A stretch of 64,000 bases of DNA, taken from contig JABIVC010000013.1 of assembly GCA_018667355.1 (NCBI GenBank), positions 74,305 through 138,304 of the forward strand, written 5' to 3'. Both the position numbers and the translations under genes were made by a program. Position 1 is the stretch's first letter; every line of letters begins with the position of its first letter. This stretch comes from Gammaproteobacteria bacterium (GTDB lineage: Bacteria; Pseudomonadota; Gammaproteobacteria; GCA-002705445; GCA-002716945). The notes below the pieces were generated by a model, which saw only the letters and a program-made list of their open reading frames with translations, searched no databases and was not told the origin of the DNA. Below, in pieces: positions 2,046 through 22,882 of this stretch.

Positions 2046-3302
2046 ATGAACCTAACTGAATTAAAAGAAAAACCAATCCAAGAACTTGTAGCTATTGCGG
2101 AAAAAATGGGTGCCGAGAATGTCGGTAGACTTAGAAAGCAAGATGTTATTTTTACAATTTTAAAAAACCATTCCTCTAGTGGAGAGGATATATCTGCTGG
2201 GGGTGTTTTGGAGATATTACAAGATGGTTTTGGATTTTTAAGAAATGCCAGCAGCTCATATCTAGCTGGCCCTGATGATATATATGTTTCTCCTAGCCAA
2301 ATTAGAAAATTTTCATTACGTACAGGTGATACTGTTGAAGGTAAAATTAGACCACCAAAAGAAGGAGAAAGATATTTCGCACTACTTAAAGTTGATAATG
2401 TGAATTTTGATTCTACTGAAAATTCTAAACATAAAATCTTATTCGAAAATCTTACACCTCTCCATGCAAATGATCGATTAAGACTTGAATGTGGCAATGG
2501 AAGTAAAGAAGACATGTCAGGACGCTTAGTTGATATTGCAGCCCCTATCGGCAAGGGTCAAAGAGGTTTAATTATTTCACCACCCAAGGCTGGCAAAACA
2601 ATCATGCTTCAACAAATAGCTCAGAGTTTAACTGCTAATAACCCTGACTCTATTTTAATAGTTTTGTTGATTGATGAAAGACCTGAAGAGGTTACAGAAA
2701 TGTCACGTATGGTACGAGGTGAGGTTGTAGCAAGTACTTTCGATGAACCAGCTCATAGACATGTACAAGTGGCAGAAATGGTTATAGAAAAAGCAAAACG
2801 ATTAGTTGAACATAAAAAGGATGTAATTATTCTTCTTGATTCTATTACAAGATTAGCAAGGGCATATAATACGATAGCGCCTTCATCTGGGAAAGTATTA
2901 TCTGGTGGAGTAGATGCCAATTCTTTAACTAAGCCAAAAAGATTTTTTGGGGCAGCTAGAAATATTGAAGAGGGTGGTAGTTTGACAATATTGGCAACAG
3001 CTCTCATTGATACAGGCTCTAAAATGGATGAAGTTATTTATGAAGAGTTTAAGGGTACGGGTAATATGGAAGTACATCTTGACAGAAGAATAGCTGAAAA
3101 AAGAATATATCCTGCTATCAATATTAATCGCTCAGGAACTAGACGTGAAGAGTTACTAACAACTCCAGATGAATTACAAAAAATATGGATCTTAAGAAAA
3201 GTACTGCATTCAATGGATGAGTTAGATGCCATGGAGTTTATGCTTAATAAATTACAATCAACAAAAACTAACTCTGAGTTTTTTGATTCGATGAAGAGAT
3301 AA
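2046..3302 (+). CDS. rho: transcription termination factor Rho
   Basis: 418 aa, with N-terminal RNA-binding region, Walker [13 protein letters not shown] and Rho-typical C-terminus. Confidence 0.92.
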
Positions 3303-4646
3303 TTAATTTCCTATATCTTCTCTGAAGAATACTAAATTATTATTTTCAATTTTCATATCTTTATCTTCGAAAATTTTAATTTTCTTTATATTTTTATATG
3401 CAAGATTTACTGCTTCTTTTTGATTTTCAGCATATACATTAATCGTAAGAATTCTTCCACCTGTTGTACATATTCTATTATCATCTAATACTGTCCCAGC
3501 ATGGAATAATTTAACTGTTTTGCTTTCTTCAACATTATTAGTATCAATATAAAACCCCTTTTTATATTCTTCAGGATAACCTTTAGCTGCTAAGACAATT
3601 GTGCAACAGTAGCCCCTATTATTATGATTAAAATTTTCTATGTTTAGGTCTTGAATCTTAATTGTTGGGTCATTAAAAATCATTTCTAAAAAATCAAAAT
3701 TTTGATTTTCTAAAGATAACATTAGGTTTTGAGTCTCAGGATCACCCATACGGCAGTTATATTCCAGGACTTTAACTTTATTAGTACTATCCACCATTAA
3801 TCCTATATATAGAAAACCCAAATATTTAACATTAGTTTTTTTATTATAATCATTGATTCCATTTATTGTTTTAACTAAAATCTTTTCAATATCAAGATAT
3901 AGCTTATATACTTCATTCTTATGTTCATAGCTTAAGGGATGGCTCACAGCTCCCATACCCCCTGTATTTGGACCAGAGTTATATTCATCACGAGACTTAT
4001 AGTCTTTAGTCCATGGCAGACCTATTTCAAAACTACATCCCTTATAATTGCATATATATATTGCTGATAATTCCTGTCCACTTAGGAATTCCTCTATAAC
4101 AATAAATTCTGAATAGTCGGGATTCAATAGTTTATCTATAGCGCTAATTGACTCTTCCACTGATGAGGAAACAATTACTCCTTTGCCTGCAGCTAAGCCA
4201 TCAGCTTTTATTACTATTGGATGCTTCTTGTTAGCAACATAAGCTTTAGCCTGATCTTGATTTGAAAACATCTGATATTCAGCTGTTGGAATATCATAAT
4301 TTATCATAAATTCCTTAGAGAAAACTTTAGACCCTTCTAATAATGAATGTTCTTTTGTAGGCCCAAAAATTTTTAAATTATGCTCAAAAAATTTATTAAC
4401 AATACCCTCTACCAATGGAACTTCGGGCCCAACTATTGTTAGAATAACGTTGTTTGTTTTAACGAAATTTATGAGACTATTAATATCAGAAATATTGATA
4501 TCAATATTTTCTATATCTTTTTCTAATGCTGTTCCAGCATTACCAGGACAAACAAAAACTTTTTGTACTTTTGGAGATTTAGAAATCTTCCATGCAATTG
4601 CATGCTCTCTCCCACCTTGACCAATCACTAATATATTTTGTTTCAT
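3303..4646 (-). CDS. purD: phosphoribosylamine--glycine ligase
   Basis: N-terminus ILVIGQGGREHAIAWK plus ATP-grasp body; about 15 residues longer than E. coli PurD. Confidence 0.85.
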   Translation of the reverse strand: MKQNILVIGQGGREHAIAWKISKSPKVQKVFVCPGNAGTALEKDIENIDINISDINSLINFVKTNNVILTIVGPEVPLVEGIVNKFFEHNLKIFGPTKEHSLLEGSKVFSKEFMINYDIPTAEYQMFSNQDQAKAYVANKKHPIVIKADGLAAGKGVIVSSSVEESISAIDKLLNPDYSEFIVIEEFLSGQELSAIYICNYKGCSFEIGLPWTKDYKSRDEYNSGPNTGGMGAVSHPLSYEHKNEVYKLYLDIEKILVKTINGINDYNKKTNVKYLGFLYIGLMVDSTNKVKVLEYNCRMGDPETQNLMLSLENQNFDFLEMIFNDPTIKIQDLNIENFNHNNRGYCCTIVLAAKGYPEEYKKGFYIDTNNVEESKTVKLFHAGTVLDDNRICTTGGRILTINVYAENQKEAVNLAYKNIKKIKIFEDKDMKIENNNLVFFREDIGN

Positions 4647-18867: not shown

Positions 18868-19797
18868 ATGATAATGTCTGACCTAGAAGGGCAAATATGG
18901 ATGGATGGTTCTTTTTGTGACTGGAAAGAAGCAAAAATTCATATACTAACCCATACTTTACATTATGGAACTGGTGTATTTGAAGGCGTTAGAGCTTATG
19001 AAACTAAGTCTGGTCCTGCGATTTTTAGACTTGAAGATCACACTGACAGGTTATTTAATTCAGCTAACTTAGTTGGAATGAATATACCTTTTAACAAAGA
19101 AACGCTTATGCAGGCACAGTGCGATGCCGTTAACAAAAATAATCTAAAAAATGCTTATATTAGGCCTTTATGCTTTTATGGTAGCGAGGGAATGGGACTA
19201 AGAGCAGACAATTTAAAAGTTCATTGTGCGATAGCAGCATGGGATTGGGGACCTTATTTGGGTGCTGAAAAAATTATTAATGGCATTAGAGTTAAAGTCT
19301 CACCATTTCCAAAAAGAGATTCAGAAGCCATGTTGTATAAAGCAAAAGCAACTGGAAATTATATAAACTCAAGTCTTGCGCTAAGGGATGCTTTAACATC
19401 TGGATATGATGAAGCTCTCATATTAGGAACAGATAATTCTGTAAATGAAGGTTCAGGAGAGAATATTTTTTTAATTAAAGACAATAAACTAATTACTCCA
19501 GAATTATTAACTGTATTAGATGGCATAACAAGGAAAACCGTTATAGCTTTAGCCGATGATTTAGGCTTGGAAACAATTCAAAGAAAGGTAAAGCTAGAAG
19601 AAGTTTTTAACTGTGATGAAGCTTTTTTTACTGGTACTGCAGCTGAAGTAACCCCTATAATAGAGATAGACGATACAAAGATTAGTAATGGAGTACCAGG
19701 ACCAATAACAAAAATGTTGCAAGAAAATTATTTTAGCCTTATCAGAGGCACTTATGGTAAACATAGCAAATGGTTAACTGTTATTTCAGATAAGTAA
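18868..19797 (+). CDS. ilvE: branched-chain amino acid aminotransferase
   Basis: 309 aa; IWMDGSF..W.EAKIHILTHTLHYGTGVFEGVRAY. Confidence 0.85.
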   Translation: MIMSDLEGQIWMDGSFCDWKEAKIHILTHTLHYGTGVFEGVRAYETKSGPAIFRLEDHTDRLFNSANLVGMNIPFNKETLMQAQCDAVNKNNLKNAYIRPLCFYGSEGMGLRADNLKVHCAIAAWDWGPYLGAEKIINGIRVKVSPFPKRDSEAMLYKAKATGNYINSSLALRDALTSGYDEALILGTDNSVNEGSGENIFLIKDNKLITPELLTVLDGITRKTVIALADDLGLETIQRKVKLEEVFNCDEAFFTGTAAEVTPIIEIDDTKISNGVPGPITKMLQENYFSLIRGTYGKHSKWLTVISDK

Positions 19798-20724
19798 ATG
19801 ATTCCAAAAAAGAAAATACTTGTTATTGGCGATATTATGTTAGACAGATATTGGATGGGGCAGGTTAATAGAATATCACCTGAAGCACCAGTACCTATAC
19901 TAGATGTTTGTTCGTCAATAGATAAACCGGGCGGAGCTGCAAATGTGGCAAAAAACTTATCTGATTTTGGAATGGATGTAACATTAATTGGTTTAACAGG
20001 AAAAGATGAAGCAGCTGCTAAACTGAAAGAGATCATCGGTGATTCAAGTATTTACTATGCCCCTATCGAAGACCCAAAAATTAGAACTACAATAAAGTTA
20101 AGAGTAATTGATAAAAATAAGCAAATAATGCGAATTGATCATGAGGATAAAGACCTTTCGAAAATTGTTAGCAACACCTGTAAATCTATAGAGAAGACTT
20201 TGGACCAATATGATGGAATTGTCATATCTGATTATGATAAAGGTATGATAAAGCCGCTAGTCAAAAAAATATTAAACAAAGCAAGACTGCTTGGTATCAA
20301 AACCTTTGTCGACCCAAAAGGTTTAGATTTTAATTTTTATAAAAAAGCATTTTTACTGAAGCCAAACTTAATTGAGTTTGAAGCAATAGTAGGAGTGTCC
20401 AAGGATAGAAAAGAATTTATTGCAAAAGGTGAAAAGCTCAGAAAGAAGCTATCAGTAGACTGTCTTCTTGTTACTGAGGGTAAAAAGGGCATGACTTTGT
20501 TTGAAAAGAGAAAATCAACATCTTATAATGCATCTCAGAAAGATGTATTTGATGTTACTGGTGCTGGTGACACGGTTATATCTATATTAGCTTCATATAT
20601 CATAGCAGGCAAAAATATTTCTTCAGCTGTAAAAATGTCTAATTTAGCAGCTGGACTATCCGTTCAAAAGCTTGGTTCAACAAGTGTAACCCAAAGTGAA
20701 TTATCTGATGAATCTAAAAAATAA
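19798..20724 (+). CDS. hldE: D-glycero-beta-D-manno-heptose-7-phosphate kinase (HldE domain I / HldA-like)
   Basis: PfkB-family kinase motifs (GGAANVA, DVTGAGDT). The stop lies at an A6 tract and the downstream ORF is the HldE domain II in the +1 frame. Confidence 0.8.
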   Translation: MIPKKKILVIGDIMLDRYWMGQVNRISPEAPVPILDVCSSIDKPGGAANVAKNLSDFGMDVTLIGLTGKDEAAAKLKEIIGDSSIYYAPIEDPKIRTTIKLRVIDKNKQIMRIDHEDKDLSKIVSNTCKSIEKTLDQYDGIVISDYDKGMIKPLVKKILNKARLLGIKTFVDPKGLDFNFYKKAFLLKPNLIEFEAIVGVSKDRKEFIAKGEKLRKKLSVDCLLVTEGKKGMTLFEKRKSTSYNASQKDVFDVTGAGDTVISILASYIIAGKNISSAVKMSNLAAGLSVQKLGSTSVTQSELSDESKK

Positions 20725-21193
20725 TAAACTTGTAGAGAGTTTGCCAGATCTTATAGCATTATGCAGAGGTTATGAGTCTGAAAATAAAAAAGTTGTTATG
20801 ACTAATGGTTGTTTTGATATTTTACATTCTGGCCATACTCATCTTTTACAAGAGTCAAAAAATTTAGGTGATATATTGATAGTTGCTCTGAATAGCGATA
20901 TGTCAATTAAAAAAATAAAATCTAATAATAGACCAATTATCGAAGAATCAGACAGAGCATATGTTTTGTCATGCTTAAGCTCGGTAGATCATATAATTTT
21001 ATTTGATGAAGAAAGTCCTGAGAAAATTATTTGTGACGTGTTGCCTGAAGTACTAGTTAAAGGCAGTGATTATAAAGGAAAAAAAGTTGCGGGAGAAGCA
21101 TGTTTGCTCAGACATGGAAAAAAAGTCATACTCATTGATTTAATTAAAGGTAAATCTTCAACATCTATAATCGAAAAGGTTTTAAAACTTTAG
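20696..21193 (+). CDS. hldE: D-glycero-beta-D-manno-heptose-1-phosphate adenylyltransferase (HldE domain II / HldC-like)
   Basis: Cytidylyltransferase motif VVMTNGCFDILHSGH. Overlaps the kinase ORF by 29 nt. First in-frame ATG at 20708 (the track's 20696 start is GTG). Confidence 0.8.
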   Translation: MNYLMNLKNNKLVESLPDLIALCRGYESENKKVVMTNGCFDILHSGHTHLLQESKNLGDILIVALNSDMSIKKIKSNNRPIIEESDRAYVLSCLSSVDHIILFDEESPEKIICDVLPEVLVKGSDYKGKKVAGEACLLRHGKKVILIDLIKGKSSTSIIEKVLKL

Positions 21194-22210
21194 AATAGCA
21201 TCTATATTTTTTGTAACATCTTCAATTCTAATTAGTGACATGGCTTTTTTATTTCTTACTCGCTTACCCCATTTAACAGAGTCTTCAGTTTCTTTATTAA
21301 ACTTTATCAATGCCTCAGGATATTTATTTATAATATATTTCATATTGCGATATGGCCCTGTTCTAAATGGATTCGATGTTGCAAATAAACCAATTACAGG
21401 TTTAGCAAGCAAAGAAGCCATATGCATAGTTCCAGAATCAGAGCCGATATATAATTCTGAATTCTTAATTATATTATACGCTTGTTCTAAGCTTGTTGAA
21501 CCAACCATATTAGTTACGTTATTTATATTATTAAACTCAGCAGACTTTCTTATTTCATAATCACTTTTTCCTCCAATAATAATAGAGTCAATGCTATATT
21601 TTTCATTAATATATTTGACTATCACTTTATAGTTATCAATATCCCATTCTCTATAATTAAATCTACGTGAACTGGTAAAGGGATTGAATACAATATATTT
21701 TTTATTTATTATTTTTTTAGCTTCGCTAATATTTATTTCATAATCGAGATACTTATTATTGATACCAATCTCTTTTAAAAAATAAAAAAATGTATCCAGA
21801 ACATGAATTCTTGGTTTTGGCCTTATTCTTTCATTAATAAATAATGAGTGGAAATTTTTTGAATTAGGCGAGTCAAAGCCAATCTTACGTATTGAATTTA
21901 CATATAAACTAATTATATTGGATCTCAATGAAACTTGCATATGAAGTAACACATCATATACTTTATCTTTGTTAATCAGTCTCAACTTTTTCAACGATAG
22001 CCTAAAATTATTTTTGTCTATCACAATAAAATCAACACCTTTGATATTCTTGACTAGCGAGTATTCTGTTTTACCGATAATCCATGTAAGATTTGCATGT
22101 GGTAGATAGTATTTTAATGTTTGTATTATTGGTATCATATGAGTAATATCACCAATAGATGAAAGTCTTATGATACAAATAGAATTTAATTGATTAGCAA
22201 CTTGGGACAT
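21182..22210 (-). CDS. ADP-heptose:LPS heptosyltransferase (glycosyltransferase family 9)
   Basis: ICIIRLSSIGDITHMIPI N-terminal signature. Start re-picked at the internal Met (22210) from N-terminal alignment to WaaC/WaaF. I cannot distinguish heptosyltransferase I from II. Confidence 0.7.
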   Translation of the reverse strand: MSQVANQLNSICIIRLSSIGDITHMIPIIQTLKYYLPHANLTWIIGKTEYSLVKNIKGVDFIVIDKNNFRLSLKKLRLINKDKVYDVLLHMQVSLRSNIISLYVNSIRKIGFDSPNSKNFHSLFINERIRPKPRIHVLDTFFYFLKEIGINNKYLDYEINISEAKKIINKKYIVFNPFTSSRRFNYREWDIDNYKVIVKYINEKYSIDSIIIGGKSDYEIRKSAEFNNINNVTNMVGSTSLEQAYNIIKNSELYIGSDSGTMHMASLLAKPVIGLFATSNPFRTGPYRNMKYIINKYPEALIKFNKETEDSVKWGKRVRNKKAMSLIRIEDVTKNIDAILKF

Positions 22211-22882
22211 AATTTGAGTATTATTATTAAAAAAATTAACAATCACTTCATATTCTATGATAAAGACATTGAAATTAATATAGAAGAATCCTTTTTTAAT
22301 GGGAACTTCGCTACCGATGAAGCACTCAATGTTCAATGGATACATAATAGAAGATGGGTTAAGAAACATTATTTTCGCAAAGGGTTAATGTCATTTCTTG
22401 ATGATAAATACATAACCAAGGGAATCAAAGATACCAGATCATACAAAGAATATTTCATATTAAACTATTTATTTAAATCAGGTTTTAATACCTGTAGACC
22501 AATCATTGGCTGGGTAACATATGGCCACATATACTATACTGCAAATCTCGTGACAGAGGCTTTGCCATCCATTACCTTAATGAAAGTCCTACAACTTAAT
22601 ACTATGAAGGATCTGTATTGGGAGAAAATTGGGATTGAAGTTAGAAAAATGCATGACTTAGGTATATATCATGGTGATTTAAATATAACTAATATTATGA
22701 TTGATGAAAAGAAGGGGAATATATTCATATTAGACTTTGACAAGTCACATTTTAGGAAAATAGACGAGAGTGTTGGCAAATCAAATCTGAAGAGGTTAAA
22801 GCGTTCATTGCTAAAAAATAATTTTTTTAATGAGTTAGATTACAAAAAAATCATTGATAGCTATAGTTTTTTTAAGAAATAA
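22190..22882 (+). CDS. kdkA: 3-deoxy-D-manno-octulosonic acid (Kdo) kinase
   Basis: LPS-kinase family (IYHGDLNITNIMID, ILDFDKS), collinear with Haemophilus KdkA. The start is a TTG in the track and is uncertain. Confidence 0.6.
   Translation: MISNLGHNLSIIIKKINNHFIFYDKDIEINIEESFFNGNFATDEALNVQWIHNRRWVKKHYFRKGLMSFLDDKYITKGIKDTRSYKEYFILNYLFKSGFNTCRPIIGWVTYGHIYYTANLVTEALPSITLMKVLQLNTMKDLYWEKIGIEVRKMHDLGIYHGDLNITNIMIDEKKGNIFILDFDKSHFRKIDESVGKSNLKRLKRSLLKNNFFNELDYKKIIDSYSFFKK

Follow-up and report, generated by a model that had tools for sequence, protein, structure and literature searches.

Adjacent, overlapping hldA and hldC genes in marine Gammaproteobacteria: very likely a genuine two-gene counterpart of bifunctional HldE

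In Escherichia coli and most Gammaproteobacteria, the synthesis of ADP-heptose for the lipopolysaccharide (LPS) core is the work of HldE (RfaE), a bifunctional protein represented by the profile NF008454, in which a kinase domain and an adenylyltransferase domain are fused into a single chain of about 475 aa. Separate HldA and HldC proteins have been documented in Neisseria meningitidis and Ralstonia eutropha (PMC10221265). The split is already known in kind, and the public MAG records already annotate the proteins described below as products of separate genes. Here we analyze a locus at which an earlier note on this DNA described hldE as broken into two ORFs through a frame change at a run of six adenines (A6) and offered three explanations, namely a homopolymer error in sequencing or assembly, a genuine two-gene hldA/hldC arrangement, and a frameshift rescued by slippage. 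The locus belongs to a 64,000-nt stretch of gammaproteobacterial DNA, hereinafter the window, with a GC content of about 31%. We conclude with high confidence that the locus carries a genuine, long-established two-gene hldA/hldC arrangement in which hldC has a start codon of its own, the ATG at position 20708. The features of the locus are the following.

18868..19797, + strand: class IV aminotransferase, ilvE-like (Pfam Aminotran_4, E 4.5e-52)
19798..20724, + strand: hldA, predicted heptose-7-phosphate kinase, 308 aa (Pfam PfkB, TIGR02198)
20708..20724, + strand: hldA/hldC overlap, 17 nt, ATGAATCTAAAAAATAA, with the hldC start codon within the 3' end of hldA
20708..21193, + strand: hldC, predicted heptose-1-phosphate adenylyltransferase, 161 aa (Pfam CTP_transf_like, TIGR02199)
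20716..20721, + strand: A6 run, read as Lys-Lys codons in hldA and as Lys-Asn codons in hldC
21182..22210, - strand: convergent GT9 heptosyltransferase (Pfam Glyco_transf_9, E 1.1e-31)

Reading of the sequence bears out the description of the junction that had been given in the earlier note. The kinase ORF ends with ...SELSDESKK, and its TAA stop codon (20722-20724) directly follows the A6 run. The hldC gene is in the +1 frame relative to hldA, with its ATG located 14 nt upstream of the hldA stop and encoding the N-terminal peptide MNLKNNKLVESLPDLIALCR. The 29-nt overlap that had been reported for the second ORF is correct for the mechanically delimited +1-frame ORF, which extends from GTG 20696 to 21193; the conserved start is ATG 20708. 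The observation that deletion of a single A restores a full-length HldE-like frame holds as well: the virtual product of 464 aa reads ...ESKNNKLVESLPDLIALCRGYESENKKVVMTNGCFDILH, with the trans-frame peptide ...SELSDESKNNKLVESLPDLIALCR, and aligns end to end with true fused HldE proteins (43% identity to P0272 and 42% to P0274), the break between the two ORFs falling in the inter-domain linker of HldE. The A6 run itself is unremarkable because the window contains 121 A runs of at least six nucleotides, 10 of them within hldA and hldC; at 20716-20721, it incidentally results from a pair of lysine codons in AT-rich DNA.

Some sequencing technologies often miscall homopolymers and, given that removal of one A yields a protein that aligns with fused HldE over its entire length, an error of this type, with the real genome containing A5 and encoding a fused HldE, has to be considered. 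Five independent assemblies, namely two NCBI MAGs, two ENA assemblies and one JGI Saanich Inlet metagenome, were compared with the window; they come from different samples and pipelines, show 0-1 mismatches to the window over 3.9 kb, and carry the identical A6 junction, ...gaatctaaaaaataataaac.... The 308-aa kinase occurs with an identical sequence in 111 blocks of the assembly collection, the close homologs of the two proteins are 308 aa and 161 aa long, and divergent relatives that have no A run are split in the same manner. Against this evidence, an error in sequencing or assembly is vanishingly improbable.

Each of the two ORFs matches its own half of HldE. The product of hldA contains a full-length PfkB kinase domain (PF00294, E 1.6e-36, residues 5-296) and, in addition, scores 341.8 bits against TIGR02198 (rfaE_dom_I), compared to the curated equivalog-domain cut-off of 345 and to 84 bits for ribokinase, the next unrelated family. 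The translation includes an N-terminal GGAANVA and a DVTGAGD (the DxTGAGD, catalytic/anion-hole signature), which we take to be conserved motifs of PfkB kinases, and the closest solved structure is that of the stand-alone HldA 4e84 (E 5e-64). The product of hldC matches the CTP_transf_like domain (PF01467, E 2.6e-14) and scores 176.5 bits against TIGR02199 (rfaE_dom_II; curated cut-off 181.5), aligning with positions 6-143 of the 144 in that profile; it contains CFDILHSGH, with the HxGH motif, and SSTSII. Its best solved relative is 5x9q (E ~1.2e-24), a protein of 173 aa that was deposited as a 'putative cytidylyltransferase' and presumably is the stand-alone HldC of Burkholderia pseudomallei. 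On the 475-position profile of bifunctional HldE, the kinase covers only positions 10-310 and the adenylyltransferase only positions 331-472, with scores of 332 and 164 bits, respectively, against a cut-off of 521, so neither protein combines both domains in one polypeptide of ~475 aa. Judging from these sequence comparisons, both ORFs encode intact single-domain enzymes. No other family rivals these two for either product; because the equivalog-domain scores are just under the cut-offs, the exact substrate specificity predicted for the two products rests on homology and context.

The names of these proteins in public records vary. Some records describe them only as 'PfkB family carbohydrate kinase' or 'adenylyltransferase/cytidyltransferase family protein', and the sub-cut-off NCBIfam scores probably explain such generic names. 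One record (P0077) names the 308-aa kinase 'Bifunctional protein HldE'.

The split is conserved among relatives. A scan of one genome per species yielded 10 loci from MAGs of marine Gammaproteobacteria, with 61-84% amino acid identity, and in all 10, a kinase ORF of 305-309 aa is followed by an adenylyltransferase ORF in the +1 frame. This ortholog comparison is the check that the earlier note had suggested, naming a uniform presence of two separate overlapping genes as the result that would speak against a frameshift; two overlapping genes are what the related genomes uniformly carry, and the view of the A6 junction as a lesion in hldE finds no support. The ATG of hldC occupies an identical alignment position within the 3' end of hldA in all 11 lineages (the window and the 10 relatives) which, together with the conservation of the split, strongly supports the two-gene option. 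The overlap between the genes measures 17 nt in nine of the 11 lineages; it is shorter in L007 (8 nt) and longer in L008 (20 nt). The hldA residues that are encoded over the hldC ATG vary (D, N or H, followed by E, A, V or G), with the pattern xATGxx kept throughout; a constant ATG under varying hldA residues is the signature of selection on the hldC start codon. Three lineages (L002, L003 and L009) have a +1-frame stop two codons upstream of this ATG, which leaves no room for a longer ORF in them, and therefore, GTG 20696 cannot be the conserved start; the alignment places the true start of hldC at ATG 20708, which corresponds to a protein of 161 aa and the 17-nt overlap. Beyond these loci, nearly all of the best 120 kinase homologs (61-100% identity) are about 308 aa long, and the best 120 adenylyltransferase homologs (65-99% identity) are all stand-alone proteins of 161 aa, except for two shorter fragments.

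The sole fused close homolog, P0106 (457 aa, PfkB and CTP_transf_like domains, 64% identity), was rejected as the product of a chimeric assembly. The respective contig is covered 2.3x and resembles the window at the nucleotide level only up to about kinase residue 260; its GC content passes from 0.30 to 0.43 to 0.22; the C-terminal part of P0106 has 33% identity to hldC over 78 residues and is devoid of the usual motif. At this locus (L016, ENA ERZ834050 NODE_23656, positions 3250-4371), the 5' part of a clade-type hldA is joined to a higher-GC, HldE-like 3' part and to unrelated 22%-GC sequence, giving rise to the spurious protein.

The pattern of substitutions around the junction is also informative. 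In nine gap-free aligned lineages, with 67-97% nucleotide identity, we computed the mean column entropy for each of the three codon positions of the hldA frame. The values are 0.40/0.25/0.93 upstream of the hldC ATG, that is, in hldA, and 0.95/0.49/0.23 downstream of the hldA stop, that is, in hldC; in the 17-nt overlap, they are 0.25/0.46/0.25, low in all three phases. Thus, it is precisely at the junction that the wobble position switches from the hldA frame to that of hldC. By this measure, purifying selection is frame-specific on either side of the junction, hldA and hldC have been coding sequences in the frames they occupy today for as long as the clade has been diverging, and the overlap is constrained in both frames. 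The codon-phase periodicity is strong in both genes and the junction is the same in the five assemblies, which sets the pair apart from an artefact and from a recent pseudogene.

The last of the three explanations listed at the outset is that slippage, or +1 ribosomal frameshifting at AAAAAA-TAA, rescues a frameshifted hldE, the fused protein being the functional product. The A run abuts the stop codon and the downstream domain is in the +1 frame, which superficially resembles the RF2-type and endosymbiont poly(A) cases, and A6 or A7 precedes the hldA stop in six of the 11 lineages. However, the tract is absent in L004 and L005 (tctacagaaTAA) and in L007 (aatgtcTGA), is A4 in L010, and amounts to only 6 nt in the window, whereas the runs involved in endosymbiont poly(A) slippage are considerably longer than A6. 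The downstream gene has its own, independent ATG in each of the 11 lineages; the junction shows no stimulatory structure, its predicted RNA folding being no better than that of shuffled sequences (z = +0.52), and no conserved Shine-Dalgarno-like element. As for a +1 frameshift, the re-pairing of tRNA-Lys from AAA to AAU would be imperfect, and none is possible in L004 and L007. Taken against these observations, the rescue of a broken hldE by slippage or frameshifting seems extremely improbable. A weaker variant, in which a one-base shift in transcripts or on ribosomes generates a minor fused HldE-like product in the A6/A7 lineages, including the window, is very unlikely too, and the non-conservation of the A tract argues that such a minor fusion is not selected.

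Under the two-gene arrangement that we favor, HldA and HldC would jointly perform, as two polypeptides, the work of HldE in the synthesis of ADP-heptose for the LPS core, the activities being predicted from homology. Together with the upstream ilvE-like gene, the stop codon of which abuts the hldA ATG without a spacer (19795-19800), hldA and hldC most likely form one transcription unit; the synteny with the ilvE-like gene is the same in L011-L016. A search for terminator-like sites between or within hldA and hldC found none. Translation of hldC is most likely coupled to that of hldA, such that ribosomes that end hldA, or that unfold its 3' end, would initiate at the nearby ATG, with the 17-nt overlap being the probable site of this coupling. 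Because no clear conserved Shine-Dalgarno sequence was found upstream of the hldC ATG in the 11 lineages, only a weak, non-conserved GTGA/purine-rich stretch, the mechanism of hldC initiation is one that we infer; with no such conserved sequence, termination-reinitiation or ribosome-assisted initiation is favored, if anything.

Promoter-like matches are not enriched in the region (10 found compared to 14 expected by shuffling). One match to the sigma-70 consensus, with 11 of the 12 positions (TTGAAA-17-TATAAT; 20501-20529, + strand), lies within hldA, some 180 nt before the hldC ATG; it could serve as an internal promoter for hldC or have arisen by chance in AT-rich sequence.

Downstream, the 3' end of the convergent gene for a GT9 heptosyltransferase, a member of a family that uses the product ADP-heptose, overlaps the 3' end of hldC by 12 nt (21182-21193). 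Beyond the GT9 gene, there are a gene for a Kdo/WaaP-family kinase and then one for the Kdo transferase WaaA, a set of predicted neighbors that appears to fit an LPS-core locus. The Rfam scan of the window detected only two tRNAs and no rRNA.

The start of the heptosyltransferase gene deserves a separate comment. In the relatives, the start codons of the heptosyltransferase (342 aa) and of the divergent Kdo/WaaP-family kinase (222 aa) are 3 nt apart (22210-22214 in the window) and therefore, the promoters of these genes would lie inside each other's coding sequence. The mechanically delimited heptosyltransferase ORF in the window (21182-22369, - strand) is longer, at 395 aa, and its extra N-terminal part runs into the divergent Kdo-kinase gene; in identical contigs, the start chosen by gene callers gives a protein of 342 aa or, in one record, of 318 aa.

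The origin of the two-gene arrangement is a distinct issue. A fused HldE ancestor could have been split by a 1-nt indel in the linker, after which a start codon, ATG, was acquired in the new frame and the two-gene state became fixed; such ancient fission is compatible with the presence of two genuine genes today. In line with this scenario, the break falls exactly in the inter-domain linker, the two halves are colinear with fused HldE, and the overlap and the frame offset would be the expected remnant of a single-base frameshift. A crude neighbor-joining tree of the kinase domain, built from 40 representatives, recovers the clade as monophyletic, with mostly fused proteins of ~476 aa as its nearest neighbors; this tree, however, is star-like and comes without support values or taxon labels. 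Furthermore, in a search of 1.8 billion cluster representatives, the next relatives outside the clade (at most 46% identity) comprise a mix of fused (~475 aa) and split (~310 aa) forms, and the two forms are interspersed at 40-46% identity. The alternatives are that the pair was split ancestrally or that fusion took place elsewhere, and we consider fission to be a possible but tentative scenario, somewhat short of an even chance.

Whichever route led to the extant pair, flagging the junction as a frameshift, a pseudogene or an assembly error would be wrong, and hldA and hldC are the appropriate annotations for the genes, not 'bifunctional protein HldE'. The locus cleanly exemplifies gene fission or fusion at a domain boundary in the streamlined genome of a marine bacterium, where the two genes overlap out of frame in a conserved manner.

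Comparison with the known systems defines the place of this pair. With endosymbiont poly(A) slippage and with the +1 frameshifting of RF2 (prfB), the locus shares an A run beside a stop codon and a continuation in the +1 frame; unlike those cases, it has no conserved slippery tract or stimulator, only A6, and the downstream ORF has a conserved start codon of its own. With bifunctional HldE, it has both catalytic domains and their order in common but, in contrast to HldE, the domains are encoded as two polypeptides, a division maintained throughout the clade. The closest similarity is to the HldA/HldC (RfaE1/RfaE2) pairs of Neisseria meningitidis, Ralstonia eutropha and Burkholderia, where a PfkB-fold kinase and a nucleotidyltransferase-fold adenylyltransferase are likewise separate polypeptides; the best solved-structure matches of the pair, 4e84 (HldA) and 5x9q, are both stand-alone enzymes. 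Those pairs come from Betaproteobacteria, whereas the one described here belongs to AT-rich marine Gammaproteobacteria, shows modest identity to the characterized HldA and HldC enzymes, and consists of adjacent genes joined by a conserved 17-nt out-of-frame overlap.
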